A DNA stretch of 64,000 bases from assembly GCA_044892505.1 (NCBI GenBank), contig CM097882.1, forward strand, positions 449,376,001-449,440,000, in the 5' to 3' direction. The DNA comes from Schmidtea nova. Lineage: Eukaryota. The notes under the pieces are model-generated. The model did not search any database. It was not told the origin of the DNA and was given only the letters and a program-made list of their open reading frames with translations. Position 1 is the first letter of the stretch, and the number at the start of each line of letters is the position of its first letter. This document shows positions 2,274 to 34,263 of the stretch, in pieces. Position numbers and translations under genes: made by a program.

Positions 2274-2580
2274 CAACTTCGTTTTATCGGAAAAATGTAA
2301 ATGTAAAATCTGCAGAGAAGTTTAAAACGCTCGTGTCAATTAATTTAATAAAAAACAGAAAGGTTATAATTAAATTTAAATTATTGTATAAAAATTAAAA
2401 TAACAACATGGCAGTGAACAAAAGTGAAGTTAAAAATTAAATGCATGCATAGATAATTTGTCGGGACGACAATTTTCGGAAACACGGGGGGAGTTAAATA
2501 TTAAAAGATACAAAACGAAACATATTACTACCTTAAAAACGATAAAAATAACAGAGTTAAAACGATTATTTATTCAGTAA

Positions 2581-7700: not shown

Positions 7701-10700
7701 GTGATGAAAAAGAAGAAGAGAACCTACAAGAAGTTGCAAGGGAAGCAAACGCGTGCTTCGAACGGAGAATAAAACCACGGTTAGAATACGAGAAAGAACG
7801 AGTCTTACGAAAAAATCTAAATTCCCTGATAGAACAAATCATACCACAAGTCAAAAAACATAGAAAAGAGTTAATGAGAAGCGAATACGAGAAATTAAAA
7901 CGATGTATTGAGTGCATACGTGACACAAGTCACACGAGATGGTCACAAATCTCACACGATAAATTAATCGCAAAAATGGGAAAAACAATGTTCAGACAAG
8001 GGAAAATAACAGATCTAAAAATTTCGGTAGAATTACCTAATGAGGACACCAAAGAAATTGAGGTGGTAGCGGATTGCACCATTAAGGAATTAATAAATGT
8101 CATCAACGAGACACTAGTGCAAAGAGAACCAGAAGACGAATGGGAAGACGACATAATCATACAATACAACGAACATGTATTATGGGATCACGATGAGAGA
8201 CGATTATATAAAATCGGTATATGGGATAATCACCAAACAATCCACGTTATCAGAATGGACGATACACCAAGGGAAACTGCTAAAGATGAGAAAAGAGAAC
8301 GGGAACGACGGAAAGAAGTTGTGCGTAAATTACAACAAATAGTAGAAATTTATCGAAATTGGCGAATTGGGCCAGAGTGGGAAAATGTATTAGAAGAACT
8401 CAATCTCAACAGACGAATACGAACACCCGTAGAAAAACAATGGAACGAGAAAGGAAAATGTTGGGAACCAAAAGAAGGGGAATATGAAGAAGAATATAAA
8501 AGAGGAATTGAAGATGGCTGCGAACCAGAGATGGGAAGGGTCTGCATGGTGACAAGGAAAGCTACGCCAATAGACCTAGATGGACCAGAAACCGCGGCTA
8601 TGTGGCTAGAAAGGGAAAAGCAAAAAACGGAAGAATTTGTCGAAATATTAAAAACTAATGCGCACGGTAAGAGAAAAGTAATAAAGGGTCTCGCAGATTT
8701 TTTCGTGGTAAATGGGGAAGATATAACATGCTTGCGTAAAGTAGCAAAAGCAATCGCGGAATATAAAAGAGTTAACGAGTGGTGTCCGGAACAACTAGAC
8801 CACGTAATTAGGAAATGGAGAAATCAAGAATTCTCGCAAGAAATTCCACAGAAAGTACATTTAAGAATAATATATCCAAACAAGGATAAGGAAGAGCTTT
8901 GGGTAGGAATAGCAGAAAAAATTCGAGATATTAAAAAGAAATTGAGATACGAACCACCATTCCATTTACAACACCAAGGACGATCATTAGATAACAGTTT
9001 GGAAATCGGAATAACGCCAGCACAATTAGATCTCATGAATACCTTGACAGTAGAAGCAATAGCAGGTCAACCATTGAAACGTAAAGAAGAAAACCATAAA
9101 CCACACAGAAGTATAAGTACGCCAAGTCCGATGAAACCAGTACTAACGCCAGGAACAAGTTCAAGACGATCTGAGACAACACCCAGAGGAACCAGAGAAA
9201 GGACTCCACCACAACCATACGACGTGGACGAAATTTTAACGGATAGCGACGATATGATAGAAGAGTTAACCGAATTAACAAGGGAAAAGGACGATAACAT
9301 TTTCGAAAGAATACAAGAACTACCTACGACAATACAAGTAACCAACACCGGAGAAGCAGAAGTCGAAGAAGAAATAATAATAGAAGAAGTAAACGATCTA
9401 ACAGAAGACGAAACGAGAGGAGCGAATGTCGAAAATGTACAATTAACACAAGAAATGGAAAGATGGTTAGAAGAAAGAGCTAACGAACCAAGAGATGTCA
9501 CCGAAGAAACCGGACGAGCAACAAGGTTTGTGGAAATAGGTACAGGAATGGATAAACGACCTCGAGGTAGACCCAAGACAGACCCAGCAACAGTAGTTAT
9601 CAGAAATAAGGACGAAAAGAGACAAGATCAATGGGAATTATGTTTAAAGAAATTAAACAAAATCGCAGAGATGAAAGAAAAAGAGACAACACCAATATGT
9701 CAAGGGGAGGAATGGATATCGAAAACAATAATGGAACTATTGGCAATAATTGATCCGGAATTAAGAAAATACTGGCGTATAACGGAGATAAGCGAAAAGG
9801 CGAAGTCACTACACAGCGCAATCGCACCCATCTTACCGGAATTCATAAAAGAGAAGACGAAATCAAATCACTTAGACTGGCAAGGAACCACTATGTTAAT
9901 AAAGAAACTGACAGAAGGAGCGGAAACAGATAACAAATACGTAATAGCTATTGCATACACGATCTACAATCTGTTGACACTGAGTAGAGGTCGACCAAAA
10001 CCCACTGCATTAGAGAGACATATAAAAAATACCGCAAAGATTATAGCTAGAGAAATAGAACCCTACGTCATTAACAAAGGAGGATGGGAAACATTTATAA
10101 AAACTAACCAGAAGAAAACACAAGCCAAGAATATGAAAAAGAAATTCGAAAAAATATTGGAAGAGTTAGGAAAAGAACAAGCAGGAACAGGAAACGCAAA
10201 GTCATCAATGAATCTGAGTTCTATAATAATGATGATGTTGATATGGATGATTAGCACCGATAGCGCAACAGCATTCGAAGTGTTTGATTGCGACCAAATG
10301 AAGTTAGGAGAAAAGTATTCATTGAGAGGTACGGAGCAATGCAAAGATGCAACTCCGGTAGAGTTGCAAAAGATTAAAAAGGAACAATGGTACCACGTGT
10401 ATCAAGAAGCAGAACTCATAAAGACAATGGTGAACGAATGTAAAGTGCAGAAGACGAGATTCGCATTCTACTGCGGGAGAGGACATTATTCAGCAATTGT
10501 CATGCCAGGAACGGAAAGAGAACCAATCGTGTTACAAGGAGAGGATTGCGAAGCACTGTTTAAACATGGAGAAGTAACAACAAGAGATAAAATCAAGATA
10601 AGAGGAAAGCCAGGAATGATGATGCAACAGACGTACTATGTAGCAGGACGGATTACGGGAGGAGAAGGATATTGTCAAGGAGAAACCTACCCGATATTCG

Positions 10701-12052: not shown

Positions 12053-13129
12053 AAGAGAGAAAAGAAAGTGAATTGGAAAATGGTAGTAGGATTTTTACCA
12101 TTCCTTGCGAAAACGATGGTGTTACACGGTCACTCAAAAGATATCCACCGAATAAAAAGACTCCTGAAGATATTAGCAAAAATGAAGGGAACAGATGAAG
12201 AAGTAGGACGCAAATTTAAAAAGATAATGAACGACGAACAAGCAAGACAACAGCTCAAGAGAGAAAGAAAAGGTTTATGGGAGAGGATGAAAGGATATAA
12301 AACCCAAAATGATTCGAGTGACGACGATGATGACGATGACGACTATAAGGGAGGACAAGTGTATAAGAACCAAGCACCACAATACATCGAAAAGAATCCA
12401 GCCGACGCATGGAAATGTTACGCGCCTCCACCAACAATGTATCAAGAACCACTACAAGGAGGAAAAAATAGCACGATGCAAATGATGCCAATGACAAATG
12501 TATACCCCATGATACCAGAAGATTATAAAATGAGAAGATGTAGAAGCGTAGATCCACAAGGAGATACACACACGATCGCAGTAATGTCATCAAACACAGG
12601 TCCAGTGTTAACCACGACAATAGAAATTAACGGAAGAGAAATCGAAGCAATGATCGACACGGGAGCAAACATTTCCGCCATCGACATCAAATGGATACCA
12701 CAAGAGCAAAGACGGGAAATAGAAAGAACAAACGTCCATGTAATTGCATGTAGCAAAGAAGTTGTAGAAGTAGCAGGAAGATGGTGGGTAAAAATACGCC
12801 ACTTAAACACGGAAATCGATACCTACGTAGCAGTTATACCAGCATTAAGCGTGCCTTGCATTATCGGAACAGATTTGATGCCAGCATTATTTAAAGAGAT
12901 TGTAATCGATCTCGGAACAATGAGACTAAAAGATCGCACCGGACAAATATGCGCAATAGAAGCCAAAGTGACAAGTTCAAAGCAAATGATCATACCCGCA
13001 AGAAAGGAGAAAATATGTTACGTAAAAATAGATCCGACAATCCAAGGTGATATGATTTTCGAACCAAGTAAGAGATTCGAGAAAAGAAAAGCGTTGCCAA
13101 TGGCAAGAGGATTTTGTCAACATAAATGA
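12053..13129 (+). CDS. pro: Env cytoplasmic tail plus retropepsin aspartic protease; same frame as the upstream ORF, separated by a single TAA
   Basis: AMIDTGANISAI (DTG at 12656) and CIIGTDL motifs; 12068-4763 is a multiple of 3; sequence reads CFDI*KREKKVNW. Confidence 0.85.
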   Translation, partial: KREKKVNWKMVVGFLPFLAKTMVLHGHSKDIHRIKRLLKILAKMKGTDEEVGRKFKKIMNDEQARQQLKRERKGLWERMKGYKTQNDSSDDDDDDDDYKGGQVYKNQAPQYIEKNPADAWKCYAPPPTMYQEPLQGGKNSTMQMMPMTNVYPMIPEDYKMRRCRSVDPQGDTHTIAVMSSNTGPVLTTTIEINGREIEAMIDTGANISAIDIKWIPQEQRREIERTNVHVIACSKEVVEVAGRWWVKIRHLNTEIDTYVAVIPALSVPCIIGTDLMPALFKEIVIDLGTMRLKDRTGQICAIEAKVTSSKQMIIPARKEKICYVKIDPTIQGDMIFEPSKRFEKRKALPMARGFCQHK

Positions 13130-16100
13130 TAATGGAGAAATCCCAATAAATATGGTAAATTTCGACGAGGAGGATAAAATAATCTACGAAAACGAAAGAC
13201 TAGGTAAACTAACCCCAATGATGGATATCGAACTACCAATAGAAGGAGCAGGGAAAGACAAAGAACCAACCTGGAATATTGACAGTGAATTATTAAATGA
13301 GGACCAAAAGAAACAGTTAGAAAAACTGCTGATAGAGTATAAGGATATATTCGCAGCATCCGATTTAGATCTAGGAACATGTGATGTCACACTACATACA
13401 ATACCATTAACAGATGAAACACCAATTGCATTAAGGCCGTACAAATTAGCGGAAGCACAGAAGGCAGTAGCAGAAGCAGAAGTGAAGAAAATGTTGGATG
13501 CAGAAGTAATCGAACCAAGTTGTTCACCCTGGCAATTTCCAGTGGTAATGGTGAAGAAGAAAGACGGAACACAGAGATTCTGTATAGATTACCGAAGATT
13601 GAATACAGTGACAAAACGAGATACTTACCCATTACCAGACATCAACGAGATGCTACTAACATTACAAGGAGCAGCATATTTTACGTCGTTAGATCTGAAA
13701 AGCGGATATTGGCAAATAAAAATGAAGGAAGAAGATAAAGAGAAAACTGCCTTTACCATCGGTAGAGACCTATATCAATTTCGAAAGATGCCATTTGGAT
13801 TAACGAACGCACCAGCATCATTTCAGAGATGCATGAATTTCGTCACCCATGGAATAAAGCAGTGCATGGTCTACATCGACGATTTATTAATTTATTCTAG
13901 TACATTCGAACAACACATACAAGACATTCGAGATGTATTCGTTAGACTTAGACAATGGAAGTTAAAACTCAAGCCATCCAAGTGTGACTGGGCAAAAGAA
14001 AAGGTTACATTTTTAGGACATATAGTGTCAGCAAAAGGAAAAGAACCGGATCCTAGAAACATCGACAAGGTAAAAGAATGTCCAGTACCAAAAACAATAA
14101 CCCAAATACAAGAATTTCTCGGATTATGTGGATATTATAGGAAGTTTATAAAAGATTACGCCGGAATCGCAAAGCCTATACAGGAACTGGTAAAGAAAGA
14201 TGTATCATTCATATGGGGAGATGAACAACAAACAGCCTTTGAAACGTTGAGAGATAAATTGATAACCGCACCCATATTGGTACACCCAGACTTTAAGAAG
14301 CCATTCCTACTTGCAACAGATGCAAGCGGATATGCAGCAGGAGCAGTATTAGGACAATACGATGACGAAGGAAAAGAACGTGTAATCGGATATTATAGCC
14401 GGACATTCAAAAAGCATGAGAAAAATTATTCAGTGACAGAACGGGAAGCATTAGCGATTATACTAGCAATAAAACATTTTAAATATTTATTATGGGGTCA
14501 CATCATCTGCATAACAACAGATCACCAACCGCTTGTATGGTTAGGACAGCACAAGGAAACATCTAGTAGACTAATGCGATGGGCAATGCAGTTACAGGAG
14601 TACTCACCGGACATAAAATTTAAATCAGGACGAGCAAATGCGAATGCAGACTGTATGTCAAGACTGACATTTCCGGAATTAACCGATCCTGATGTACAAC
14701 GAATTTGTGTATTAATAGCAGAAGATTTAGATTTTAGCGAGCTTAAGAAAGATCAACAAGAAGACAAAGAATTAGGACAAATCATAGAGTTCCTAACATC
14801 TCGAAACATGGAGGTATTCAAAGAGAATAAGGAATTAAAGGAACATATAGGAAAATATCAACATCGCTACATAATAAATAAAGGATGGTTGTTAATACAA
14901 GACGGAGAAAAGAGATTGATGTGTTTACCGGAAAACAGAAGGAAAGAGATAATGATCCAGTACCATGATGGGAAATTAGGAGGCCATATGTCCGAGAAGA
15001 AGACAATAAATCGTATGAGACAAAAATATTATTGGCGAACAATGGAAGAAGATATAAAAGAATGGATTAAAAATTGTCTAACTTGTGCAACCAGAAAGGA
15101 TAGTGGGAAGAAATGGAAGAACCCGCTACAACCAATGCCGATACCAGCAGAGCCAATGACAACTATAGCAATGGACGTAATAGGACCATTACCGGAAAGT
15201 CTAAACGGAAATATTTATATATTAGTGATAACAGATTATCTGACAAAATTCCCGGAAGCATTTGCCATGCAAGACCAAAAAGCAAAAACTGTAGCAAAAA
15301 TTTTAGTGGAAGAAATATGTTGCAGATACGGAACCCCAAAACAAATACTCACAGACCAAGGAACTAATTTTATGAGCGAGCTATTGAACGAGGTAACAAA
15401 CTATTTCAGAATAGCAAAATTGAGAACTTCACCATATCACCCGCAAACGAATGGACAAACGGAGCGATTCAATGGTACATTGATTAGAATGTTATCAAAT
15501 TACGTCAGCAGACACCAAACTGATTGGGACGAATACATAAAATTATGTTTAATGGCATACCGAATGTCGATACATGCAGCAACAAAACTAAGCCCATTTC
15601 AACTTATGTATGGAAGAGAATGCAACATGCCCATAGATTTAGAGTATCAGCCACCATTATCGCAATATATGGAAGACGACGACTACGTAACCAAATTCAA
15701 AGAAAGAATGCAGGAAATATGGAAAACGGCAGAACTCAACATTAAATTTTATCAGGAAAGTTATAAGGATTTACACGACCAAAAGAAAAATGTAAAAGCA
15801 AACGATCTAAAACCAGGAGATTGGGTGATAATAGAAACTCCCGAAATAATACCAGGAACTGTTAAGAAACTCCAAAGACCTGGAAGAGGACCTTATGAAA
15901 TTATATACAAAAAGGACAATAATGTCAAAGTTAAGCTAATAAATCGACCGTTAATACGACCCATATATGTAAACACTTGCAGATGTAAGAAAGTACCTAA
16001 AACGATAACTACAACACCAGAGAATCGAATAATAACCAGATCACAAACAGCCAGGATAAATATGCTCAGAGCTAATGCAACTGAAGACGACAAAGCAGAA

Positions 16101-19100
16101 ATAAGGCAAAAAGAAATCAGAAATAAAGAAATTATATTGAAGGCGAGAGAGATAATGGGAAGATGGCATGTTAGAGACGAAGTAGGCATATCAAGGGATA
16201 TTAGACATATAATTAGCCGTTACGCACAAGGATTACCAACCGAACCAATTATTTCTGAATTATTGGAAAAAATCCCTGAAATACTCTTATTGAAAGATGT
16301 AGGAGGACAACCAGCCTTACATAATGCGATAGAGTGTAAAAACATTGAAAGAGCAAAAGAATTTCTAAAAATCGCAAAAGAAACAAACCAAAACTTGGAC
16401 GTAGGGAATCGGGAACAAGAAACTCCATTAATGACAGCCGCAATCCACCAAGCAGATAAAGAAATGATAGACCTATTGATAAAAGCTCATTTCAGTTGGA
16501 CAGAACGAGATAGAGAAGACAAAACAGTGCTAAATCACGTAATATGGAGTTCTCACCAACCAATGCTGAAATACATAATAGCTAACTCCACTTGGGAGAT
16601 AGACGAACTAGTTAAAAGAGACATTATCAAAGAGGCAATCAAAATTGGTAAATGCAACACGATCCGTAAGTTAATCAAATGGAAACGACCAGAAGATGAT
16701 ACATGGGTCTTAGACATAAACGAAGTATACAGCGAAGGACAAAACGCACTGTTAAGATACCTTTTGAAATTTACTTGTGATCAGAAGACATTACTAACCT
16801 TATTAGACAGAGGAAACATAAACATCACAAAGAATGAAGAAGAATACAAATTCGATAAAGAGAAGGAAGCCTTATTCAATAAGATTAGGAAATGGTGTGC
16901 GAAACCACTTGACAAACTAATAACATACAAAGACATAAACAATTTTAACGAGAAATACCAGACAATAGTAAGTGAGTACGAGGAATTAGTAAAAATCTTA
17001 AACCATCCCGAAAAATGCAAACAGGTTTTAGAGAAAAAAGAAAGAGAAAGTAACAAGAAACTCACACCACTCTTCAAAGCAGAAGCACCATACCAAGCTA
17101 GACTAGATGCGATACAAGAAAAAGCAAAAGAATTGTTACCGGAATTCGAGAATAGTAAACATGCACTGGAAATACTCGGTGCATTAGTTGAAAAAGTACA
17201 CGCATACGCAAAAGGAACTTACAACGGAAACGACATAGTAATAATAAAAAAGGAGATGCCAGTAACATTTTTACTACCAAAGGACGGAATAATGCCCATA
17301 CATAGAGCTCTACGAAATGGCAAAGATAGAAAAGTAATGGAAATTGCAAGAGTAATGCAAAATTGCGGAAGCAATATGAATATGATAGACGAGAAAGGAG
17401 ATACACTTATGGTATTTGCAGCAAGGGCCAAAACGAAAACAAAGGTATTAGAGGAACTATACAAAGCAGGTGCAGGACTTACAGGAAAGACAGATAAAGA
17501 TAATTCGATATTGGATGTAGCATTATTAACACACAATTGGGAAATGGTCAATTTCATTAAAACCGTCCCAAATCAGGAAGAAATAGATCACCTAACTGAT
17601 ACGGTCAAGAAACCCAGTGTACTAGCAATGATGAACAACGTCGAACTAACAGAATCAATACTTACGTGGATAAATCCTAATACTAACGAACCAGCATTCA
17701 GGATTAATAAATTTACAGAACATAACCAAAACTGGTGTATAAGAAGTGCCTTAATAACGTATAAATGGCCAGAGATATTGAAGATGTTTATGGAAAGAAA
17801 GGATCTAAGAATCACAACCAGCCCGAAAGAAGAAAAATACACAGGCAAATGGAAAGAATTGATGAAGACATACATCAACAATTGGATCAAGGCCAAAAAG
17901 GAAATCTTGGAATATAAATCCACTAACAAAGTAATACCGGAGCAGGTAGAAACACAAGAATTTGAGGCAAGCAATCTAACGACATTAGCATATGCAAAAT
18001 TAATAGAAGAAATCAATGTCGAGGACGACATTTTCGACGAGCCAGGGGGAGATGACAACACAGATAGTGACGACGATAACAACTCAGAAAATTCAAGCGA
18101 TCACGAACCACCCGATAAAGAGGAAAACGAGAGAAAAGACAAGAAACGAGACAAGGAAGGAAAGAAAGGTGAAGACGAAAAACAAAGAGATGAAGAGAGA
18201 GAACAAGGAACAAACGACCAAGGAGATAAAAATGACACCCAAAGAACAGGTTATAAATCAACCATAAAACCATTCTTCAAACCAGAATTACTATTACTAA
18301 CAATGATTATAACGTTAATTAATCCAAGTCAGGGAATGACATGTGAAGAAAGGGCAATAATACAAATAAAAAACGCAAAAGGAATCGAACGAGTATGTTG
18401 GTCGAAAAAGGACAAAATCACGGAACAAAATAGCCCGATGGATTGCAGAATCTCAAAACACGAGCAAGAGATCATAGAGATCAATGACTTAGATCTAGAT
18501 ACCTGGTACAAAATATGCACCGTTAGAAAACAAAAACATCCAAGATCACACAACACAATCGCATGTGCAAAATACCAAACACCTAAAGCAGCCATGACAA
18601 TACAACAGTCACCCAAAGGAGATTACATCATCGGAAAATGTGGAAGAACAGAGACACAGAGAACAGAAAATAAAAAACCCCAGGCAATAGATAAGCAAAC
18701 AACACCAACCCTACGAATTACAATAGAAAGGCCCGAAACAAGAATTGCCACAAACGAAACCGAAAGAGTGTCTTACCAAATGGAAGTATTATGCTTAGCA
18801 CTCATACTAATAATAATAAAACGATTAGAGGAAGGAATAGAAATTGAAACTATGACAATAACAGAAGTGGAAGATACACAGAACACTAACATAAAATGTT
18901 GGGCGAGGAATAACGAGGAAATCGGCGTAAATGAAATAAGGAAAAGTCGAAAACCCACAACAAACAAAGTAATTAAAGTATCCGAAGTAAGAGCAGACAA
19001 GACGTACAAACTATGCCTATTAGAAAAAGAGACAAACAAGAAAGGTACCACAAAATGTAAAACATTCCAACCTGGAGAAGTAATAAAGTTCAGAAGGAGA

Positions 19101-21722
19101 ACGAGGAAGAGAAATAAACAAATCAAACAGAAAATAAACATAACATTAGAAATAAAAGAGATAGAACCAAACGTGAAAGGAGTATGCTGGAGGAAGTACG
19201 AAAAAGAAACAAATGAAAGAAAGACACCACAATGTCGAACAAGCACAGGAGCAACGACGATACAAATAAAAGGTTTAGAAAGTAAACAAACTTATGAAAT
19301 ATGTCTCGTAAAGAAAAATGATCAGATAACGATAAACGACCTAGAATGCGGAATATACACCACTTCATCCGGAACAAGAACTAAAACGATAACACGAAAA
19401 AATAAAAGAAGACAACGAAACAAAGGGAAACCGAAGTACACCACTACCTTTAAAAACAATAAACAACCGATAAGCCAAGAAGTTACGACAAAACCCGAGA
19501 AAAAGACATCAGCAACTCTAACATTATGGAAAATAGAGAATAAAACATTAGAAATATGTTGGATAATAGTTCAGAAACATATAAGAAGACAATCAAGAGA
19601 GTGCAGAAAAACAAATAAAGAAATCAAGATCGAAAAACTACAATTTAATAGCGAGTACGAAGTATGTACAATAGAAAAAACGGACGCACTAGGAAACCAA
19701 CAAGAAAGATGCGAAACCTACTATACACCAGCGAACGCAACATCAAAAGGAATAACAAGGAAACTCGAATTCAGGGAACTAAGCCAAACGAATGAACAAA
19801 TGGACGTAGAAAAAACAATAACCGACCCTCAAGCAAAATGGACACCCGAAGAAGTTATCAAGGAAGTCAAAAGAAAGCAAGAGGAACGGGAACAATTAAT
19901 GAGAAAACTAAAGGGACAATACGGAATAATGTTCAACCAAAGCGAATCTATACAAACAGACGAGAATAAAGAAATTAAAGAACTAATTGGCTTAGGAATA
20001 TTAACAGCGACCATACCAGTAATAATCGCGTTATCAGCTATATGGATACGCAAGATAAACCCAAAGAAATCGGTAACCCAATGGACAAATAGAGACAGTA
20101 CAAGCCATGGAGTGGAAATGCTAGAAGAAGAAGCACGAGAAGAACCAAAAAAGAAAGAAGCAAAAAGCGGAAAACTAGGAATAAACAACAAAGACAAGGA
20201 AATAAAAGAGATTAAAGGAGAAGAGAAAAAATATGAAAGGCGAACCAGAAGCCTACCGCAGAGTTCAACATGGTTGAGTCTAACAATAATATTGACATTA
20301 ATTAATAGGGAAGAAGCAATAAACCCACAGACAGGGATAAAAGTAATAAATGTCCAGGAAGTCGAGAAAATATGTTGGTATAGAGAAGATGAACCAATTG
20401 GAGAAAATAACCCACTAAAATGCATAATCAGAAAATCCGACCAGGATATCGTACGAATAGAAGAAATGGATGGAGGAACCATGCATCGGATATGCATAAT
20501 AGAAAAGGAAAAGAAGTCGGGACTACCTAAGACAGTCGTATGCCAGAAATATGAAACGCCTAGACTTGAATGGTATAGAGTAAAACCAACAAAGAAAGAA
20601 ATCAAAAACACAATAGATCAACCAGCAACTCAGATAAAAAACACAACGGATAAACCAGGAGAAGGAGAGAAAAGCACCAATAAAACGAGAGAAAGAATAT
20701 CACCCCAACAGGAGTGCGTATGCATAGCATTAATACTAGCAATGTCCAAACGTATCGATAAAGGAATAATAATAGAACAAATGGCCATAACAATAAGGAA
20801 AACAAGTAGCAACAAACTATGCTGGGGAACATACAACGAACCAAGGAAGGAATACCAAGTTCAGACAAGCGACGAATCACGAACAAACAAGGAAATCGAA
20901 ATACAAGAAATACAAATGAATGAAGAAGGAAGTATATGTATCTGGGAGAAAGGAATCCAAGAGGGAATAGAGCATTGCAAGACATTCCAAAAAGGAGAGA
21001 TACTGAAATTCGATGAAGAAGAATTAACAAGGACAGAAAGAACTCTGACATTAACAGGACTCGATCAGACAGTTAAAGGAATATGTTGGACAAAGCATAA
21101 CCCAGAAGGGGAAGAAGACAACCTAACCCACTGTAGAGAAATAAAGAATAAAGAAAAAGTCGAATTAAAGAAAATGGAAGTAAATAGGACATACGCGATA
21201 TGTACCTTCACCAGAAAAGGTTCAGAAAAACCAGAATGCGGATTATATCATATCTCAGAGAAACTACAACAACAGATCGAACCAGGAAACGTGGAAAACC
21301 GAACAAAAGAAAATAACGTCAAAAAACTACTAAATCGCCATTGGTCTACACAAGAAGTAATGAACAAAGTTAAGAGTCAAATACAGAAAGAGAAGAAGCC
21401 AGAGGCTCAAACCCAAAATGAGATAAAAGCGAACCAGAATAAAAGAGAAACAAACAGTGGAAAAACAATAATAGGATTAATGAGTATAGGAATATTAATA
21501 GCATATGGAATACTGACGACAAGCATAATAGTATATTGGAGATACAGAAAGAGAAACAAAGCGACAGCCATACAATGGCCAGATATCAAAATCGTGAAAC
21601 TAGGAATAGAAATACCAGAGGAGATACAGAAAGAATTTCAAAGAAGAACGAAAGGTAAAGAATTCTGGAAACAAATAGAAGATGAAGAACGATACGAAGA
21701 AAAGACGATAATGATGATATAG
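13116..21722 (+). CDS. pol: Pol (RT, RNase H, integrase) fused to ankyrin repeats and two FN3-like/TM cassettes; entered by a +1 shift near 13112-13115
   Basis: YIDD (13872), LATDAS, H-x6-H..CxxC, MDVIG/TDQG/TERFN triad, GPY motif; then ankyrin-like TPLMTAA, PALHNAI, PIHRAL; seven CW...L..xxYxIC...C modules; TMs near 19983-20048 and 21468-21540. Confidence 0.9.
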   Translation, partial: VNINDNGEIPINMVNFDEEDKIIYENERLGKLTPMMDIELPIEGAGKDKEPTWNIDSELLNEDQKKQLEKLLIEYKDIFAASDLDLGTCDVTLHTIPLTDETPIALRPYKLAEAQKAVAEAEVKKMLDAEVIEPSCSPWQFPVVMVKKKDGTQRFCIDYRRLNTVTKRDTYPLPDINEMLLTLQGAAYFTSLDLKSGYWQIKMKEEDKEKTAFTIGRDLYQFRKMPFGLTNAPASFQRCMNFVTHGIKQCMVYIDDLLIYSSTFEQHIQDIRDVFVRLRQWKLKLKPSKCDWAKEKVTFLGHIVSAKGKEPDPRNIDKVKECPVPKTITQIQEFLGLCGYYRKFIKDYAGIAKPIQELVKKDVSFIWGDEQQTAFETLRDKLITAPILVHPDFKKPFLLATDASGYAAGAVLGQYDDEGKERVIGYYSRTFKKHEKNYSVTEREALAIILAIKHFKYLLWGHIICITTDHQPLVWLGQHKETSSRLMRWAMQLQEYSPDIKFKSGRANANADCMSRLTFPELTDPDVQRICVLIAEDLDFSELKKDQQEDKELGQIIEFLTSRNMEVFKENKELKEHIGKYQHRYIINKGWLLIQDGEKRLMCLPENRRKEIMIQYHDGKLGGHMSEKKTINRMRQKYYWRTMEEDIKEWIKNCLTCATRKDSGKKWKNPLQPMPIPAEPMTTIAMDVIGPLPESLNGNIYILVITDYLTKFPEAFAMQDQKAKTVAKILVEEICCRYGTPKQILTDQGTNFMSELLNEVTNYFRIAKLRTSPYHPQTNGQTERFNGTLIRMLSNYVSRHQTDWDEYIKLCLMAYRMSIHAATKLSPFQLMYGRECNMPIDLEYQPPLSQYMEDDDYVTKFKERMQEIWKTAELNIKFYQESYKDLHDQKKNVKANDLKPGDWVIIETPEIIPGTVKKLQRPGRGPYEIIYKKDNNVKVKLINRPLIRPIYVNTCRCKKVPKTITTTPENRIITRSQTARINMLRANATEDDKAEIRQKEIRNKEIILKAREIMGRWHVRDEVGISRDIRHIISRYAQGLPTEPIISELLEKIPEILLLKDVGGQPALHNAIECKNIERAKEFLKIAKETNQNLDVGNREQETPLMTAAIHQADKEMIDLLIKAHFSWTERDREDKTVLNHVIWSSHQPMLKYIIANSTWEIDELVKRDIIKEAIKIGKCNTIRKLIKWKRPEDDTWVLDINEVYSEGQNALLRYLLKFTCDQKTLLTLLDRGNINITKNEEEYKFDKEKEALFNKIRKWCAKPLDKLITYKDINNFNEKYQTIVSEYEELVKILNHPEKCKQVLEKKERESNKKLTPLFKAEAPYQARLDAIQEKAKELLPEFENSKHALEILGALVEKVHAYAKGTYNGNDIVIIKKEMPVTFLLPKDGIMPIHRALRNGKDRKVMEIARVMQNCGSNMNMIDEKGDTLMVFAARAKTKTKVLEELYKAGAGLTGKTDKDNSILDVALLTHNWEMVNFIKTVPNQEEIDHLTDTVKKPSVLAMMNNVELTESILTWINPNTNEPAFRINKFTEHNQNWCIRSALITYKWPEILKMFMERKDLRITTSPKEEKYTGKWKELMKTYINNWIKAKKEILEYKSTNKVIPEQVETQEFEASNLTTLAYAKLIEEINVEDDIFDEPGGDDNTDSDDDNNSENSSDHEPPDKEENERKDKKRDKEGKKGEDEKQRDEEREQGTNDQGDKNDTQRTGYKSTIKPFFKPELLLLTMIITLINPSQGMTCEERAIIQIKNAKGIERVCWSKKDKITEQNSPMDCRISKHEQEIIEINDLDLDTWYKICTVRKQKHPRSHNTIACAKYQTPKAAMTIQQSPKGDYIIGKCGRTETQRTENKKPQAIDKQTTPTLRITIERPETRIATNETERVSYQMEVLCLALILIIIKRLEEGIEIETMTITEVEDTQNTNIKCWARNNEEIGVNEIRKSRKPTTNKVIKVSEVRADKTYKLCLLEKETNKKGTTKCKTFQPGEVIKFRRRTRKRNKQIKQKINITLEIKEIEPNVKGVCWRKYEKETNERKTPQCRTSTGATTIQIKGLESKQTYEICLVKKNDQITINDLECGIYTTSSGTRTKTITRKNKRRQRNKGKPKYTTTFKNNKQPISQEVTTKPEKKTSATLTLWKIENKTLEICWIIVQKHIRRQSRECRKTNKEIKIEKLQFNSEYEVCTIEKTDALGNQQERCETYYTPANATSKGITRKLEFRELSQTNEQMDVEKTITDPQAKWTPEEVIKEVKRKQEEREQLMRKLKGQYGIMFNQSESIQTDENKEIKELIGLGILTATIPVIIALSAIWIRKINPKKSVTQWTNRDSTSHGVEMLEEEAREEPKKKEAKSGKLGINNKDKEIKEIKGEEKKYERRTRSLPQSSTWLSLTIILTLINREEAINPQTGIKVINVQEVEKICWYREDEPIGENNPLKCIIRKSDQDIVRIEEMDGGTMHRICIIEKEKKSGLPKTVVCQKYETPRLEWYRVKPTKKEIKNTIDQPATQIKNTTDKPGEGEKSTNKTRERISPQQECVCIALILAMSKRIDKGIIIEQMAITIRKTSSNKLCWGTYNEPRKEYQVQTSDESRTNKEIEIQEIQMNEEGSICIWEKGIQEGIEHCKTFQKGEILKFDEEELTRTERTLTLTGLDQTVKGICWTKHNPEGEEDNLTHCREIKNKEKVELKKMEVNRTYAICTFTRKGSEKPECGLYHISEKLQQQIEPGNVENRTKENNVKKLLNRHWSTQEVMNKVKSQIQKEKKPEAQTQNEIKANQNKRETNSGKTIIGLMSIGILIAYGILTTSIIVYWRYRKRNKATAIQWPDIKIVKLGIEIPEEIQKEFQRRTKGKEFWKQIEDEERYEEKTIMMI

Positions 21723-21847
21723 GGGCGGATTATGACTGTAAATAATAGTGTAAATAACAAAGCATTACCGTAATAGTATGGGTATCGATATTATAAAAAT
21801 TGTAAAAAGCTAGAAAAAAAAAGTAAATGATGTATATAATTTAGAAA

Positions 21848-22204
21848 ATGACCGAACAGGACGAAACAACTGAAATAACTATGGCTATGAGATGGAAAGC
21901 ACAATGTGATTTATTAGTACGAACAGTCAACTCATTACAGAACCAATTAGCGGAAAGACAAATGTTATTATCAGAAAGTTATAACAACTGTTTCGAGCAA
22001 TTACACAGAATAGAAGAACAACAAAGAGTGATAACCGAGCTCACCAGAGAAAATCAAAATATAAGCAATATCAATCAAAGACAAGCAATAGAAATAAACC
22101 ATTTAACACGAGGAGAAAGAGAAGGATCCGAAGAAGGATGGATGAGTTGGGTAATAAATAGATTAAACAACGAAGCGGAACCAGATTCAACGAATGAGCC
22201 ATAG
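21848..22204 (+). CDS. Accessory coiled-coil protein, 118 aa
   Basis: ATG ORF with heptad pattern and the same A-rich usage as the element; bounded by short AT-rich spacers. Confidence 0.7.
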   Translation: MTEQDETTEITMAMRWKAQCDLLVRTVNSLQNQLAERQMLLSESYNNCFEQLHRIEEQQRVITELTRENQNISNINQRQAIEINHLTRGEREGSEEGWMSWVINRLNNEAEPDSTNEP

Positions 22205-22296
22205 ATAAATAAAGCGGAAAACTGTAAATATGTAAAAATAAAAACAAGAAAAACCAAAAATAAATGACAAGTCGAATGTATATATTATTGTAGAAA

Positions 22297-23673
22297 ATGG
22301 ACAGAGAAGAACGAATAATCGAAATTTTGAGATTAGAAAACAGAAAATGGAGCAAGAGGCTCACATGCGGAAAATGTAACAATTTATTACGAGAACCCAG
22401 ACAAACGATATGTGGATGTAGAATATGTACAAAATGTATACAAGAATTAGATGCAACAGGAATAACAACATGCCCAGAATGTAAGGAAGGAAGAATAGTG
22501 TTGGACGAAACCAGAACGGACAAGGCAACCCAAAGAGAAATTATGAGCACCACAACGGAGTGCGTAAATACACCTTGTACATGGCAAGGACAAATAGGTA
22601 ATCTAGAAAACCATATGGAAAAGTGCGAGGAGAAAAGAACCGAATGCGAGAAGTGCCAACAGACAATAATTTTAAAGAAGAGAGAACAACACAAGGAAGA
22701 ATGTAAAGAAGAAGAAATCGCATGCGAGTATTGTGAAGCCCGAGAAACAAGGAGAAAAATCGAAGAGGAACATTTGAATATAACAGAGGAGAAAGTATGC
22801 AGACAATATGTAAGTAAATGTCCAAACAATTGCGAAATAACAGAAGAAGTAAAGTTACATGAACATTGGAAAGTATGTAACGAAAGACCAAGAGAATGTC
22901 CATATAACAAACAGGGATGCAAAGAAAAGCGGACGCGGCAATCAATGAAACAACACCTAGAAGAAGCAGCACTAACGCATGTGGAAATGACAAACGAAAC
23001 GACAAAAGAAACGGAACAGACAATCCAGAAATTAGAAAAGGAAGTAGAATCACATAAGATAATGATGAGTTTACTACTAGAAACAAGAGAGCAGTTTGAA
23101 CTAACTCGCGAAAGAATGGAAAAGAAAATAATAGCCATAGAAGAATTAGGAAAAGGAATGAAAATACAATATAATCAATTAATACGAGAAATTGACGAAA
23201 GAAGGGACTTACCAATCGCACCTTACCTATGGAAAGTAACAGATTTCAGAGACAAACTAACAGAAGCCAGAAATATGACGAAAACAGCAGTAATAAGCCC
23301 ACCATTTTATTTATGGAAAAACGGGGTTAAAATAAGATTGAAAGTATACCCAAATGGAGACGGAAGAGGACAAGGAACACACGTGTCAATATTCTTCTCA
23401 CTATGTAAAGGAGAATACGATGACCTAATAGAATGGCCCTTGAAAGTAGGAGTCATTATAAGAATCAAAAGTATGGGAAAACCAGTAGAAAAGTTCTTTG
23501 AAACAGACAAACATTCGAGTACGAGCGAAAAACCAACGACAGAATGCGGACTAGCAGCAGGAGAACCAATGTTTATAAGGAAAGAAAACCTATGGGAGCA
23601 ACTATATGCAGACACGCTATACATAGAGATGGAGAGGCATGAGAAAACAGACAGAAAAGGATGGTTGGCGTAA
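22297..23673 (+). CDS. TRAF-like: Full-length TRAF-family protein (RING, TRAF zinc fingers, coiled coil, MATH)
   Basis: CGKCNNLLREPRQTICGCRICTKC..CPEC RING; CVNTPCTWQG..LENHMEKC zinc fingers; YLWKVTDF..SPPFY..IRLKVYPNGDGRGQGTHVSIFF..KGEYDDLIEWP MATH signature. Confidence 0.93.
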   Translation: MDREERIIEILRLENRKWSKRLTCGKCNNLLREPRQTICGCRICTKCIQELDATGITTCPECKEGRIVLDETRTDKATQREIMSTTTECVNTPCTWQGQIGNLENHMEKCEEKRTECEKCQQTIILKKREQHKEECKEEEIACEYCEARETRRKIEEEHLNITEEKVCRQYVSKCPNNCEITEEVKLHEHWKVCNERPRECPYNKQGCKEKRTRQSMKQHLEEAALTHVEMTNETTKETEQTIQKLEKEVESHKIMMSLLLETREQFELTRERMEKKIIAIEELGKGMKIQYNQLIREIDERRDLPIAPYLWKVTDFRDKLTEARNMTKTAVISPPFYLWKNGVKIRLKVYPNGDGRGQGTHVSIFFSLCKGEYDDLIEWPLKVGVIIRIKSMGKPVEKFFETDKHSSTSEKPTTECGLAAGEPMFIRKENLWEQLYADTLYIEMERHEKTDRKGWLA

Positions 23674-23786
23674 TGAAGGAAGTAACCATGTAAATAAAAT
23701 GTATAGAAACAATATGAATTAACAAATAATCAAAAACAATAAAAATAAAAAATGATTAAATATTCTTTTTATCTGTAATTATAGAA

Positions 23787-24848
23787 ATGGGAAATATAGA
23801 AGTAACCTTACAAGAAGTAACAGTACATCAAGACGAAATGATCAGAAATCACATGGAGCGGATCGGGATATGGATTCATGCCTATTATCGAAAACAGGAG
23901 GAAGTGGAAAGACAAACCCAAGCACTAAGAGAAGCCGAGAAAACGAATCAAAGAAGTCGAGAAAAAATAGAAGAAGTCTACAAACTACTAAGACAACAAA
24001 ACGAATACTACAAAGAGATGATGAAAGAGCGACGAGAGGATAGGGATAGACAACAAATAAAAACAGACCATAAGATCCAGTCAATCACAGAACAAGCAAG
24101 ATATTGGAAGAAAGAGGCAAAAGACTCTTATAAGGAAGCAAGGGAGATAATAGAACGAACAGCGTACAGCGATGATTGGAAACTGTTTAAAGAGATCGAT
24201 GAATTAAAAGAGGAATTAGGACAAAAGATCAGTCAAGAAGCGTCAAATAAAGTATGGAGTAAGAAAAGACAACAATTTATCAGAGAACAAGCTAAGAAAA
24301 TAAAAGAATTAACTTATCAAGTACAAAGAATGGGAGAAGATTTAGCCAACCAGGAACAATTAAAAGGTATGCTGACCGGAATGTGGAATCACAAGGAAGA
24401 AAACATGAAAAGAGACATAAATGGATATCAAGGAGTGATCACCCAGAAGAAAATAGAATTAAAAAGAACTAAAGAAAGACTGGAAGAAACGAGGCAGAGT
24501 TATGAAGAGAATATAACAAATTTGACAAAAGAAAACGAAGAACTGAGAAAGAAGTTGGCAGAAAAACCAACACCAATAAAAGAAACAAGTATCACAGCGG
24601 CAGTGACCGAAATGATGGAGAAGGAAGAGAGAGAGAAAAAATTGGCAGAACTGGAAAAACAAATTGAAACCCTAACAGAACAGGCGAACTATCTGGAATA
24701 CTTATTAGATGAAGAGATCCAGATATCCCACACATACCGAGAAGAAGTCGAAATGTGGAGGAGCACGGTAATATGGATGCCACTCCCCATAAATCAGGTG
24801 GAACCTCAAGACGAAGGTTTTTACGAACCCAACGAAACCCTGGTATAA
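23787..24848 (+). CDS. Accessory long coiled-coil protein, 353 aa
   Basis: Intact ATG ORF rich in E/K/Q heptads. Confidence 0.75.
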   Translation: MGNIEVTLQEVTVHQDEMIRNHMERIGIWIHAYYRKQEEVERQTQALREAEKTNQRSREKIEEVYKLLRQQNEYYKEMMKERREDRDRQQIKTDHKIQSITEQARYWKKEAKDSYKEAREIIERTAYSDDWKLFKEIDELKEELGQKISQEASNKVWSKKRQQFIREQAKKIKELTYQVQRMGEDLANQEQLKGMLTGMWNHKEENMKRDINGYQGVITQKKIELKRTKERLEETRQSYEENITNLTKENEELRKKLAEKPTPIKETSITAAVTEMMEKEEREKKLAELEKQIETLTEQANYLEYLLDEEIQISHTYREEVEMWRSTVIWMPLPINQVEPQDEGFYEPNETLV

Positions 24849-24924
24849 ACGTGCGAAAAACCCAGTGTAAATAAATTATGTAAAATAAAAAGTGTCAAGC
24901 TGTATTGACCAATGTATAAAAGAG

Positions 24925-25494
24925 ATGAGAAAGCTCGCAATAGCAACACTCCTATGGTTAACAACCATTACCCTACAGAGAGAAGATTTACAACTAACCG
25001 AAACCCAATTACGAGTGCTACCCGACAAAATCTACCAGAAAGTAGACAGACTAATCGAAGAAGTAATTAAAGAAATCAACGAATTCCGACAGAAATACCC
25101 TCACAATCAAGACCATCAAATCCAACAAATCTTCGATAACCAACAACTGAAACTAGAAGAAACCCGAAAAATCCTGAAAGAAGGTAGAGAACCCATAAAA
25201 AGCCTATCCCAAGCTGAAATAGAACATCAAGAGAAATGGATCATAGCAATCATCATAATCCTAGCAGTCAGCACAACTATCATCGCAATCACAATCCTAA
25301 TTGCCTCATATAGAATAAAAATCCTAAAACAAAAGCAGAAAATCTACAACCAAACCTCCAGACGAGATAACCGAGCTCAAAGACGAATAAGGAGCCATCT
25401 CAACCATATTCAAACCCACTACGAGCTACAAATGATCAACGAGAGGACCCGAACTCAACCCCAAGCGAGCCAGACGATCGAACAAATTGTATAA
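24925..25494 (+). CDS. Small type I membrane-like protein (signal-like N-terminus, one TM)
   Basis: ATG at 24925, MRKLAIATLLWLTTITL; TM WIIAIIIILAVSTTIIAITILIASY followed by a basic tail. Confidence 0.7.
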   Translation: MRKLAIATLLWLTTITLQREDLQLTETQLRVLPDKIYQKVDRLIEEVIKEINEFRQKYPHNQDHQIQQIFDNQQLKLEETRKILKEGREPIKSLSQAEIEHQEKWIIAIIIILAVSTTIIAITILIASYRIKILKQKQKIYNQTSRRDNRAQRRIRSHLNHIQTHYELQMINERTRTQPQASQTIEQIV

Positions 25495-25698: not shown

Positions 25699-26050
25699 TG
25701 TTGGGCCCGCCAAATCACCTAAAAACACAATAAAACGAACAAAAGCATGAAACAATAAAGAAATAATAAAAATAAAAATAGCAAGAAAAACAAATTAAAA
25801 ATAACAATAAAACGACAAATAATAATTGATAAATTTTCAGTAAAAGGAAATTTTGAAAATAAACCGGTAAACAACCGCAAAGGGGGGCCTGAAATAAGAA
25901 AAAAAAAATAGAATTAAATAAAATAATAGTACAAATAATTAATTAATTACTTAGAAAATCAGGACCACCCAGCGAGAAACCGGAAAAGGAAACAAAATAA
26001 TGTTTAGATTAGAATAAAATAATAAAAATACTTTGATGGACGGCCTGATC

Positions 26051-26088
26051 CTGATTGGTCAATCCAACCAGACGGATCAGTATAAATA
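26051..26088 (+). promoter_or_regulatory. Candidate LTR promoter (inverted CCAAT plus TATA)
   Basis: CTGATTGGTC at 26051 and TATAAATA at 26081. Confidence 0.5.
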
Positions 26089-27093
26089 CCGATCCAAAAA
26101 TCACAACAACAGACTTGAGACGTTTTACATTTCACTTACAATCAAGACTAAACTTTGATTTAAGTAACATTTCCTTTAACGAAGCGAGAATTTTTTGAAA
26201 AAACAGAATTCAAGTACGGAACGTAATTTTGATTGTTATTTTTTATGTACCCATGATTTTTATTTGATTAAAATTTTATATGTAAACGTTATTTTATTTT
26301 TTCATTGATTATTGACACTTTAATGCATATAGCTATACTTCCTATGCTGCTCACGCGGCGAGGGAGTCCGAGTCGTCGTCGTGGGGCCTCAGGGTCTCAC
26401 ATGGCGGTTCAACCTTTTTATTATTTAATTTAGAGGTGAAGTTTTATCTAGAAAATTTGATTGAATTTTTAGTCTAATACAGACCATTTGCAAATTATTT
26501 AATTTTGGGTTGCACAACGGACGAAGGTCGAGGGCCAAATATGTAGATTGCGGAGGGCGGATGGATAAGGAGGGACACACCATGGTAGGGCATGCTCAGT
26601 CTTTAAATTTTTGGTAAATTGAATCGAAAGGGAACCTCCCGCATGGAAAACAGTGAGCAACAACTAAAATAAATTTGAATAATTTCGTTGGAATGAGAAA
26701 ATCCAACGTAGTCCAAAGTCCGATTTCATTCGGAATCAGCATTTCGCCTACAAAATTCTAATATCGATAAATTCCGATCGCGATGGAATGCGTCGGAAAA
26801 TCCAAATTAAATTAGTTACTAAAAATAGGCCGATCGTCGTATATGACGCGGTTTCCCAAGTTATTCTCCGATCGCTGTATATAGCGCGGAAATCTTGATT
26901 AAATTTGATAATTCCTGAATGCTGTATATAGCACAGGACTAATTATGAACTCTTTATTCCGACCGTGGTAGATCACGGCGGAGAGAAATAAAATTAATCT
27001 TATTTTTTAACTGTTGTGATTATATGCAACATAATTAAATTATCAACGAATTTCCCCCTTAACTCATATTTATATCCAATAAATGTAATATAG

Positions 27094-27573
27094 ATGTCGA
27101 CAGCTGAACTTACAAATCAATTAACGCAACTACGGAATATGGAGCAAGGGAATCTGCGGAATGAAAATCTCTCGCAGCTCAAGGAACTACCAGCATCGAT
27201 ATTGCGAACCCTCAACTGCCAAATGTATAAGTGGCGACAGGGGTTTGGCCGAAAATGCCCGTTCTCGATATGGACAGGAGGGCACGACCAAATATTCTAT
27301 CGAGGAGGACCGAACTGGCCGATTTCTCAAAGGCCGTACTCAAACAAATTTGGCCGACTTGTCGTACTGATCAAGGACACCGATGGACAGACAAGCCGAG
27401 TAATTTATTGGGGGCATATCCCTCGTCGAGAGCTGTGCCAATTGGGTCTGCACGAATTCCTGCCGCGAAAACCCTTCGGCAAGGAATGCCAGAAAGGACA
27501 ACCTGCGTTTTCCTGGGCTCGTCTCCGTCAGAAACCGATTAACAGCGAATTACATAGCCTGTTTCGGAGATAA
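27094..27573 (+). CDS. LTR ORF A, 3' LTR copy
   Basis: Same as 521-1000 except one L/F change. Confidence 0.5.
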   Translation: MSTAELTNQLTQLRNMEQGNLRNENLSQLKELPASILRTLNCQMYKWRQGFGRKCPFSIWTGGHDQIFYRGGPNWPISQRPYSNKFGRLVVLIKDTDGQTSRVIYWGHIPRRELCQLGLHEFLPRKPFGKECQKGQPAFSWARLRQKPINSELHSLFRR

Positions 27574-27757
27574 GAACTGATTGTCAAATCTTTCAAATTG
27601 TGATTAAATATTAATATTCAGCAGTGTTTTTGTTATGTTGTTTTGAGTTTTGGTATTGTGTTTTTAATAATTCATATTCGTAACCAAATAGCCCTATGAT
27701 CAGTTTCATTTTTCACATCATTTAATCATAGAGTAAATATCCTAAATACATTATAGA

Positions 27758-28354
27758 ATGAACCCAGATTTGATGCAGAAAGAATTGGAAAAGATGTGGC
27801 GGATTCGGAGAGCCCAGGACAAGGAATTGGGTCTCCTCAAGGCACAATTGATCAAAGCAGAGGCACAGATTGCATATTTGCGCAAAAGCTGGTTTGCTCC
27901 GGCCCGAATGAAGGAGCAAATCAGTAAAACCGAGCGCGCCCAACAAACTGCAGCCGATTACCAAATGGAATGGGAGGCTACAAAGATAGAACTCCGAAAA
28001 TGCCTCCATTCCGTAACTGCCTCATACATCGAGAAGGAACTCAGAGAGCAAATCCGTCCGATTACGTACCAAGCTTGGACGGCAGAAAAGAAGACAGTAA
28101 ACTCCATTGGAACGGATGTCTCCGATTTAATTGAAAGTCGGAATGTGACAGCTCCTCCAGCCCATTCAACCACTTCATCGGCGACTGCGCACCAGAAACG
28201 CAAGCGCATTGGGCAGAAACGGCGGAGACAGAGAAAATTATTTGCCCAGCAATTACAAATCCAAGTCGATGGTCTACGTCAGATGACTGAGGAAGCATTA
28301 TTGACGGAGATTTTTCCTCCGGCGGGAGTTTTTACCGAACTCATTAAAAATTAA
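27758..28354 (+). CDS. LTR ORF B, 3' LTR copy
   Basis: Identical translation to 1185-1781. Confidence 0.6.
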   Translation: MNPDLMQKELEKMWRIRRAQDKELGLLKAQLIKAEAQIAYLRKSWFAPARMKEQISKTERAQQTAADYQMEWEATKIELRKCLHSVTASYIEKELREQIRPITYQAWTAEKKTVNSIGTDVSDLIESRNVTAPPAHSTTSSATAHQKRKRIGQKRRRQRKLFAQQLQIQVDGLRQMTEEALLTEIFPPAGVFTELIKN

Positions 28355-28836
28355 ATAAATTGTTGCATTGGCTTAAGAATCTCATCGTTCCTTTAAATTG
28401 ATTTAATTAACTTTACCAATGATTAAATAAAGATAGAACAAAAGTATAAATTCAGTTTACAAAATATCGAATCGAGATAATTAAATAATTAAGCGAGCAT
28501 TCGTTGAAATACTTCTCGCAGACTGAGTAATGAAAAAAATAAATTTTCTGAAAGATTTACACGGAATACATAAGTAGATGATTAAAGCATAAGTCCTTCT
28601 AACGGCAGCGATGAACCCGTAAACATAAATGGGGAGTAGTACTAGCGATAGTGCTCACCTGCCCATCATTGTTTAACCACCCTGCGCATCACCAACTTGA
28701 TTATATAGGGAAATAATCAAGGGCGCTTGAGTGTAGAATTGCAATTTTATGCATGATCATGGATGAGGGATCCCTAGTCATTGTTAGAGCATTTTTCATC
28801 TAACCCCTCCATGAACCCAGCATTATAATATTAATA

Positions 28837-34205: not shown

Positions 34206-34263
34206 GTATTTCATAATTCTATTGTCAAAATTACTTATAATAGCAATTTTTGAATAAATTCAG

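Follow-up and report, generated by a model that had tools for sequence, protein, structure and literature searches.

How a retroelement of some 30 kb expresses many separate cargo genes from one long terminal repeat (LTR) promoter is a question that the Burro section of a published review (PMC6431247) does not take up. It is raised in concrete form by a 64,000-nucleotide (nt) stretch of the Schmidtea nova genome (contig CM097882.1, positions 449,376,001 to 449,440,000; hereafter the window). Coordinates are positions within the window, and features lie on the plus strand unless stated otherwise. The window holds a giant gypsy LTR retroelement whose domain content fits a known kind, the Burro/GYPSM1-like elements. 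Downstream of its polyprotein lie four accessory open reading frames (ORFs), each preceded by a short spacer. The spacers carry what, judged from the sequence, is a real, conserved two-part code in an element of known kind: a Pumilio-type 8-mer, TGTAHATA (H = A, C or T), 14-18 nt past the upstream stop codon, and, in three of the four spacers, an acceptor-like YAG (Y = C or T) just ahead of the next start codon. The spacers and the ORFs that they separate are listed below, with offsets counted from the upstream stop.

21723..21847, plus strand: spacer 1, 125 nt; TGTAAATA at +14 and +26, TGTATATA near the acceptor, TTTAG ending at 21844
21848..22204, plus strand: accessory ORF, 118 amino acids (aa), without Pfam match
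22205..22296, plus strand: spacer 2, 92 nt; TGTAAATA at +18, TGTA at +26 and then AATAAA, TGTATATA at +72, TTGTAG ending at 22293
22297..23673, plus strand: TRAF-like ORF, 458 aa (zf-TRAF, MATH); Pfam MATH_2, E 5.5e-21
23674..23786, plus strand: spacer 3, 113 nt; TGTAAATAAA at +15, TGTA at +26, TTATAG ending at 23784
23787..24848, plus strand: accessory coiled-coil-like ORF, 353 aa; sub-threshold Filament match only
24849..24924, plus strand: spacer 4, 76 nt; TGTAAATAAA at +17, TGTA at +30 with AATAAA; GAG, no YAG, 5' of the ATG
24925..25494, plus strand: accessory ORF, 189 aa, two hydrophobic stretches; four TGTA but no 8-mer past its stop

A first-pass annotation had reported seven sense-strand TGTAHATA sites in these spacers, and all seven are present: TGTAAATA at 21737, 21749, 22223, 23689 and 24866, and TGTATATA at 21831 and 22277, within spacers totalling 406 nt. 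Its description of clusters in every spacer holds for spacers 1 and 2, with three and two copies of the 8-mer, but not for spacers 3 and 4, with one each. The reverse strand of the four spacers has none. Dinucleotide shuffles of each spacer separately, over 5000 rounds, gave a mean of 0.36 sites and a maximum of 4, and no round reached 7. The TGTA core is itself enriched (15 copies versus 5.9 expected; 0/5000 shuffles), and 7 of the 15 extend to HATA, for which the per-site chance is 0.058 (P ~1e-5). AATAAA is present in three of the four spacers, with none in spacer 1, and its count is 8 versus 5.1 expected (P = 0.11). On the RNA strand, all seven sites match the Pumilio response element (PRE) consensus UGUANAUA; among the first sites of the spacers, positions 1-8 are invariant and positions 9-10 vary. 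The spacers are rich in A (46-58%) and poor in C (about 8%), and their predicted folding is weak (-2.8 to -10.4 kcal/mol); a role for RNA structure in them was rejected.

Outside the spacers, the 8-mer is absent from the 21,321 coding nt of the element, an absence that is not significant (1.3 expected, P = 0.26). It is also absent between the last accessory ORF and the 3' LTR (25495-25700), where TGTA occurs four times. The whole window contains 31 TGTAHATA, versus 14 expected. In the 3' untranslated region (3'UTR) of a second gypsy element in the window (59047-59327), TGTA occurs 7 times versus 2.8 expected (P = 0.005), in pairs 8-10 nt apart and with no 8-mer. The motif was chosen after the data had been seen; it recurs after 3/3 stops of an independent relative, L001, described below.

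The position of the motif is tied to the upstream stop codon. The first TGTAAATA begins 14, 18, 15 and 17 nt past the stop in spacers 1-4, and a second TGTA follows 8-13 nt after it, while anything between 59 and 318 nt separates the first site from the next ATG. Under uniform placement, confinement of the first sites to a 4-nt range has P = 7e-4 in the window and P = 1e-6 for the six inter-ORF spacers of the window and L001; the last L001 site, at +34, is outside this narrow range and was left out of the test, as no ORF bounds it. The first-pass annotation had read the sites as a shared sense-strand code for expressing the downstream ORFs. The shared code is supported, but the sites keep their distance to the stop and not to the next ATG, and the idea that the motif serves the downstream ORFs is probably wrong. 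Since the motif is positioned by the stop, and is present in elements that have no downstream ORF, it is assigned here to the 3' end of the upstream ORF. Anchoring to a stop codon suggests a cytoplasmic, translation-linked role.

Relatives of the element bear on both points. A metagenome scan yielded at least three loci, L001, L002 and L003. L001 is 57% identical to the window element in reverse transcriptase (RT) and 49% in env. Its accessory ORFs encode an RNase T-type exonuclease and a 141-aa coiled-coil-like protein, and its accessory genes have no tblastn match to those of the window. TGTAAATA lies 16, 17 and 34 nt past its three stops, and all four of its plus-strand 8-mer sites are outside ORFs. 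The first L001 spacer (10283-10616) also contains a short direct repeat and two copies of the donor-like GTAAGT. L002 breaks off within env and gives no information on the motif.

Controls were gypsy-type elements in five genomes (G001-G005), namely 100 regions, 80 of them from G001 (the best 80 of 123 matches) and 20 from G002-G005, together with five earlier loci. Removal of 10 loci without a stop, 2 with a short tail, 3 with less than 100 nt downstream, 2 duplicates, L001 and L003 from these 105 left 86, among whose stops some may be internal breaks and not true ends. In 3/86 controls at least two 8-mers begin no more than 50 nt past the stop; none of 200 shuffle rounds gave such a case. 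The positives are L007 (+15, +23), L093 (+15, +26) and L109 (+30, +39); L007 was seen first and used as a query, making the blind count 2/85. L007 and L093 are compact gypsy elements in which no ORF separates the pol stop from the polypurine tract and LTR; in both, the motif pair is about 300-400 nt upstream of the LTR and has no adjacent AATAAA. L109 has only a 63-codon frame downstream. Few gypsy elements have the motif, which recurs at about +15 and does not depend on a downstream ORF. A FastTree phylogeny of 77 pol rows places the window element and L001 in a group with env in the polyprotein (SH-like 98) and L007 with L093 as a separate pair, and the stop-anchored element is present in separate gypsy lineages. 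On this tree the motif label shows no significant clustering (46/500 shuffles), and a single origin of the motif is therefore not claimed.

Three of the control genomes, G001, G002 and G003, are filed as bacterial; each has more than 100 eukaryote-type gypsy integrase matches and appears to carry much host DNA as contamination. No Burro-like locus turned up among viral contigs searched with alignments of env, integrase and RT, and an env search of prokaryote genomes was likewise negative; the env matches in G003 were weak (E ~1e-6). Four contig sets, from one study and at most three samples, cover all 30 bins and contain many divergent copies. An abundant variant copy matches as far as 21772, a stretch that includes the stop-proximal pair of spacer 1, and diverges beyond. 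When 40 of 822 substitutions among copies were inspected, none fell in the motif versus about 0.3 expected, too few to speak for conservation.

The second signal, at the other end of the spacers, is absent from the first-pass annotation. A YAG lies 0-3 nt 5' of the ATG at 6/7 accessory starts compared with 65/563 other ATGs in the element (P = 1.5e-5), and a YAG with at least five T in the preceding 12 nt at 4/7 compared with 4/563. The YAG is found in three of the four spacers, and it precedes the accessory ORF start in 2/2 cases in L001 and 1/2 in L015. L015 (5461-9457), also a gypsy element, has two accessory ORFs at its 3' end, one of them RING-Tudor, and the start AG-AAA-ATG. A diverged copy of the TRAF ORF retains ATTGTAG 2 nt before its ATG. 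The spacer acceptors also resemble the weak AT-rich acceptor, ending TAAATTCAG, of a 58-nt host-gene intron in the window (34206-34263). That intron is flanked by two exons of a host glyoxylate/hydroxypyruvate reductase-like gene (34013-34433). The spacing from AG to ATG is 0, 1, 2 or 3 nt, covering all frames, and a leader joined there should therefore be non-coding. An AUG supplied by a spliced leader (SL) was set aside for the same lack of a fixed frame (0-3 nt; 2 versus 3 between the TRAF copies). Donors in the LTR and leader are weak (6-7/9), so that splicing may be in cis or in trans. The T-rich YAG signal probably serves the downstream ORFs.

A PUF site after each stop, combined with a splice acceptor yielding subgenomic mRNAs, is our leading reading of these spacers, and we hold it tentatively. 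The 5' part of a spacer would be the start of the 3'UTR of the upstream ORF, with UGUAAAUA 14-18 nt past the stop and a second UGUA 8-13 nt further on. The putative PUF site would occupy the first position clear of the terminating ribosome. In work on microRNAs, regulatory sites are effective only beyond about 15 nt from the stop. From there it would set the stability or translation of the mRNA of the upstream ORF, either by repression, as is usual for PUF proteins, or by identifying an internal stop as a true one despite the great length of RNA that follows it. The 3' part would be a splice acceptor, a T-rich YAG 0-3 nt 5' of the next AUG, to which a non-coding leader would be joined in cis (from the LTR or leader) or by SL trans-splicing. 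One subgenomic mRNA for each accessory gene would result.

Action at the RNA level, binding by a PUF protein, use of the acceptors and the existence of subgenomic mRNAs are what we infer from the sequence, and a PUF element is the best single candidate for the 8-mer. The published account of S. mediterranea poly(A) signals reports no UGUA enrichment upstream of them, and CFIm59/68 were not found there (PMC5068929), which favours PUF over CFIm for a planarian host. RNA interference with Dj-pumilio harms neoblasts (PMC3552358). For Burro itself, BURRO1 RNA goes up under smedwi-2 RNA interference in S. mediterranea (PMC8532177). Flatworm SL trans-splicing uses UUNYAG acceptors (PMC12582326), and extra ORFs of LTR elements are typically made from spliced messages (PMC5408684). 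The captured genes of giant env-bearing retroelements may even be run as a host-style operon of SL trans-spliced cistrons, with a Pumilio site at the edge of the terminating ribosome serving a tie to stem-cell PUF proteins or a shield against nonsense-mediated decay (NMD). This extended version is rather unlikely; a literature search found no report of PUF proteins shielding internal stops from NMD.

Several observations count against the PUF-and-acceptor reading. L003, a sister lineage with env in its polyprotein, is without the motif, as is the region past the stop of the last accessory ORF in the window. Spacer 4 has no YAG, and the 189-aa ORF behind it has GAG only. A low-depth contig replaces most of spacer 1 by 36 letters and does not have the stop-proximal pair. 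PUF proteins usually repress, and the element has no evident gain from repression. L015 has accessory ORFs and carries, at +15 past its pol stop, AATAAA and not the 8-mer, which suggests that the position after the stop can hold a poly(A) signal. A UGUA followed by AAUAAA is enough to yield the 8-mer, as it does at 2/4 first sites here and 2/3 in L001.

The main rival accepts that the acceptors function and takes the UGUA repeats as a 3'-end signal, a CFIm-type UGUA pair with AAUAAA or a variant, which would direct operon-type cleavage and polyadenylation followed by trans-splicing; the PRE match would be a by-product of UGUA abutting AAUAAA. The pairing of UGUA at 8-13 nt fits this model, as do the presence of TGTAAATAAA in spacers 3 and 4 and at two of the three L001 sites, the AATAAA of L015, the enrichment of TGTA alone in the 3'UTR of the second gypsy element, and spacer lengths of 76-125 nt, within the flatworm intercistronic range (S. 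mansoni median 99 bp from poly(A) site to acceptor; PMC12582326). Some of the paired UGUA abut AATAAA; others have none. AATAAA is, however, not enriched in the spacers and is missing from spacer 1, and the GU-rich downstream tract is lacking, T+G being 0.20-0.57 in the spacers versus 0.89 downstream of the LTR poly(A) signal. The pair in L007 and L093 is far from the LTR and has no neighbouring AATAAA, upstream UGUA is lacking at planarian poly(A) sites as published (PMC5068929), and nuclear 3'-end processing does not read stop codons. We regard this rival as unlikely. In a further rival, T/GTAAATA would be a 5' splice donor, the spacer being a small intron, or a U1 site suppressing an adjacent internal poly(A) signal for the sake of genome-length RNA. 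GTAAAT scores 6-7/9 versus MAG/GTRAGT, equal to the host donor in the window (6/9), removal of the introns would leave stop-to-ATG gaps of 18, 22, 18 and 18 nt, and the first L001 spacer has its two GTAAGT. All 8 first sites considered (four here, three in L001, and L007) nevertheless place T before the GT, and T is the least favoured base there. The remaining UGUA continue with varied bases, none of the 15 joints inspected, out of 54, shows a spacer lost between GT and AG, and spacer 4 has no good acceptor. We consider a donor or U1 site improbable.

Models without subgenomic mRNAs, or without any role for RNA, are weaker. Ribosomes could re-initiate, or enter internally on an unstructured A-rich spacer, aided by a protein bound past the stop. 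Such a mechanism is consistent with the stop anchoring and with the base composition and weak folding of the spacers, but it leaves the acceptor-like YAG unexplained, and L007 and L093 have the motif with no ORF behind it. Once a long ORF has been translated, re-initiation is inefficient over distances such as the 76-334 nt at issue, and we consider this mechanism quite improbable. It is very improbable that the pattern is functionless, whether a chance product of AT-rich sequence or the result of duplication of a single ancestral spacer. The post hoc choice of the motif, its excess over the whole window and its absence from 83/86 gypsy elements would agree with chance; the failure of any of 5000 matched shuffles to reproduce it, and the identical motif and offset in L001, L007 and L093, which are far apart in protein distance, do not. 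The sites could also be DNA elements (Forkhead, TATA-like) of internal promoters, one per accessory gene; the first-pass annotation had pointed to a Forkhead site and allowed for internal promoters. GTAAATA agrees with the Forkhead consensus, and TATATA-like stretches occur 5' of two ATGs, though only about 10-20 nt from them. The sites are nonetheless in one orientation and of one variant, and their position tracks the stop codon and not the next start; TATTTAC is nowhere on the plus strand of the element, and none of its five GTAAACA is in a spacer. Internal promoters are the least probable of these explanations, and that branch is not supported.

The remainder of the element fits a placement among Burro/GYPSM1-like elements. 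Its estimated length is about 29.7 kb, the sum of the LTR offset (26573) and an inferred LTR of about 3.1 kb, and its 5' end is outside the window. The two LTRs differ by a single mismatch over the 2250 nt that can be compared, and the insertion is therefore young. Features outside the spacer region are as follows.

1..2250, plus strand: 5' LTR, partial, the window opening inside it; 1 mismatch in 2250 nt to 26574-28823, offset 26573
521..1000, plus strand: LTR ORF, 159 aa, TAG directly 5' of the ATG; without Pfam match
1185..1781, plus strand: LTR ORF, 198 aa, TAG 1 nt 5' of the ATG, AATAAA overlapping the stop
2257..2274, plus strand: primer-binding-site-like stretch, 6 nt past the LTR, which we take to resemble tRNA-Pro
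2581..3042, plus strand: 5' accessory RING-finger ORF, T-rich CAG 3 nt 5' of the ATG, AATAAA at the stop; Pfam zf-C3HC4_3, E 3e-11
5258..21722, plus strand: gag, env F, protease (PR), RT, RNase H (RH), integrase (IN), ankyrin and a long C-terminal extension; by Pfam
25699..28823, plus strand: 3' LTR; end from LTR identity, presumed start from TGTTGGG paired with terminal CCCAGCA
26081, plus strand: TATA-like TATAAATA in the 3' LTR, putative promoter
27603, plus strand: ATTAAA in the 3' LTR with a GU-rich tract downstream (T+G 0.89), putative poly(A) signal

Pfam matches place gag zinc knuckles and a Monjiviricetes-type fusion glycoprotein (Monjiviricetes_fusion, E 2e-71) in ORF 5258-12052, the protease in ORF 12080-13129, directly after the env ORF, and RT, RNase H, integrase and ankyrin in ORF 13152-21722. 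The env fusion glycoprotein is thus in frame between gag and PR, with the copy broken after env, and the PR-RT-RH-IN order is present together with ankyrin and MATH/TRAF cargo. The reading frame is broken at 12050-12079 and 13127-13151. The nearest relatives, metagenome proteins of 47-52% identity, hold env to integrase within a single ORF, and the copy is therefore taken as interrupted twice. The closest proteins to the TRAF-like ORF are cellular TRAFs (23-26% identity). A BCL2-like domain before env had no Pfam match, and Bcl-xL chains matched only at E 0.87-0.95 over 32 aa.

The ATTAAA at 27603 with its GU-rich tract is likely the terminal poly(A) site. An LTR ORF (27094-27660; also 521-1090) lies between the TATA-like box at 26081 and this site, so that R would be about 1.5 kb and protein-coding. 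A copy of the poly(A) site is also present in the 5' LTR, where readthrough would be required for genomic RNA. The C-terminal extension of pol (18300-21722) consists of repeated Cys-containing modules with several hydrophobic segments and has no Pfam match; the pol tail of relatives is similar and ends in a transmembrane-like segment. The leader between the RING ORF and gag has two tandem arrays (3489-4250) of 29-nt and 32-nt units, and a 176-codon open frame that lacks an ATG and is acidic and of low complexity (4730-5257) runs in frame into gag. Elsewhere in the window, a Polinton-like element with 1.1-kb inverted repeats, DNA polymerase B and a packaging-ATPase-like ORF is inserted in the second gypsy element (41904-57298). 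It has a TBP-domain ORF on the minus strand (43625-44059, E 3e-13), and the end of its polymerase gene is inside an inverted repeat.

Burro/GYPSM1 are giant gypsy-like LTR retrotransposons of dugesiid planarians (Jurka 2007 and Grohme 2018, as reviewed by Arkhipova and Yushenova 2019, PMC6431247). The window element shares with them a polyprotein in which an env fusion protein stands between gag and PR, as well as ankyrin, MATH/TRAF and accessory ORFs, and its estimated length would match theirs of about 30 kb. TRAF is placed differently, as a 3' accessory ORF in the window element, within ORF1 in S. mediterranea and upstream in D. tigrina (PMC6431247). The section of that review devoted to Burro contains nothing on accessory ORF expression or spacer motifs. 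The 8-mers resemble PREs (PMC5758885) in exact consensus, sense strand, location 3' of stops and frequent pairing; here the putative PREs sit at a fixed 14-18 nt past the stop and recur behind internal stops along one retroelement RNA with several genes. In the SL trans-spliced operons of nematodes and flatworms, too, ORFs share a strand, are spaced by about 100 nt and have an acceptor ahead of each start (PMC12582326). TTGTAG, TTATAG and TTACAG fit the flatworm UUNYAG motif (PMC12582326); about half of the acceptors here do not. In contrast to such operons, the array lies inside an LTR element that also needs genome-length RNA, and its use of SL and of internal poly(A) sites would be hypothetical. 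Elements with spliced env/ORF3 subgenomic mRNAs (PMC5408684) likewise have extra ORFs, and spliced messages are predicted here; the window element differs in having as many as seven accessory ORFs, of which three lie within or close to the LTR, and a stop-proximal signal for each. The RNA stability element (RSE) of Rous sarcoma virus is position-dependent and lies past an internal stop ahead of a multi-kb 3'UTR (PMC4764554). It is about 400 nt long and binds PTBP1, unlike the PUF-type 8-mer pair considered here (PMC4764554), and the pyrimidine-rich PTBP1 sites of the RSE have no equivalent in the spacers, given their 46-58% A and ~8% C. By analogy with the RSE, it can be hypothesized that the spacer motif shields internal stops from NMD.

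The element type and the motif were known already. The layout of the spacers was found undescribed in a literature search of mostly open-access papers, and the original Burro papers could already describe transcripts. The spacers give exact coordinates for the question of cargo expression: mRNAs would be expected to begin at the acceptors, and a protein to bind at the motif behind each stop. Should that protein be Pumilio, the element would be wired to a regulator that planarian stem cells require (PMC3552358). A PUF site fixed at the stop would, if true, amount to a new principle for retroelement RNAs whose 3' ends are long.

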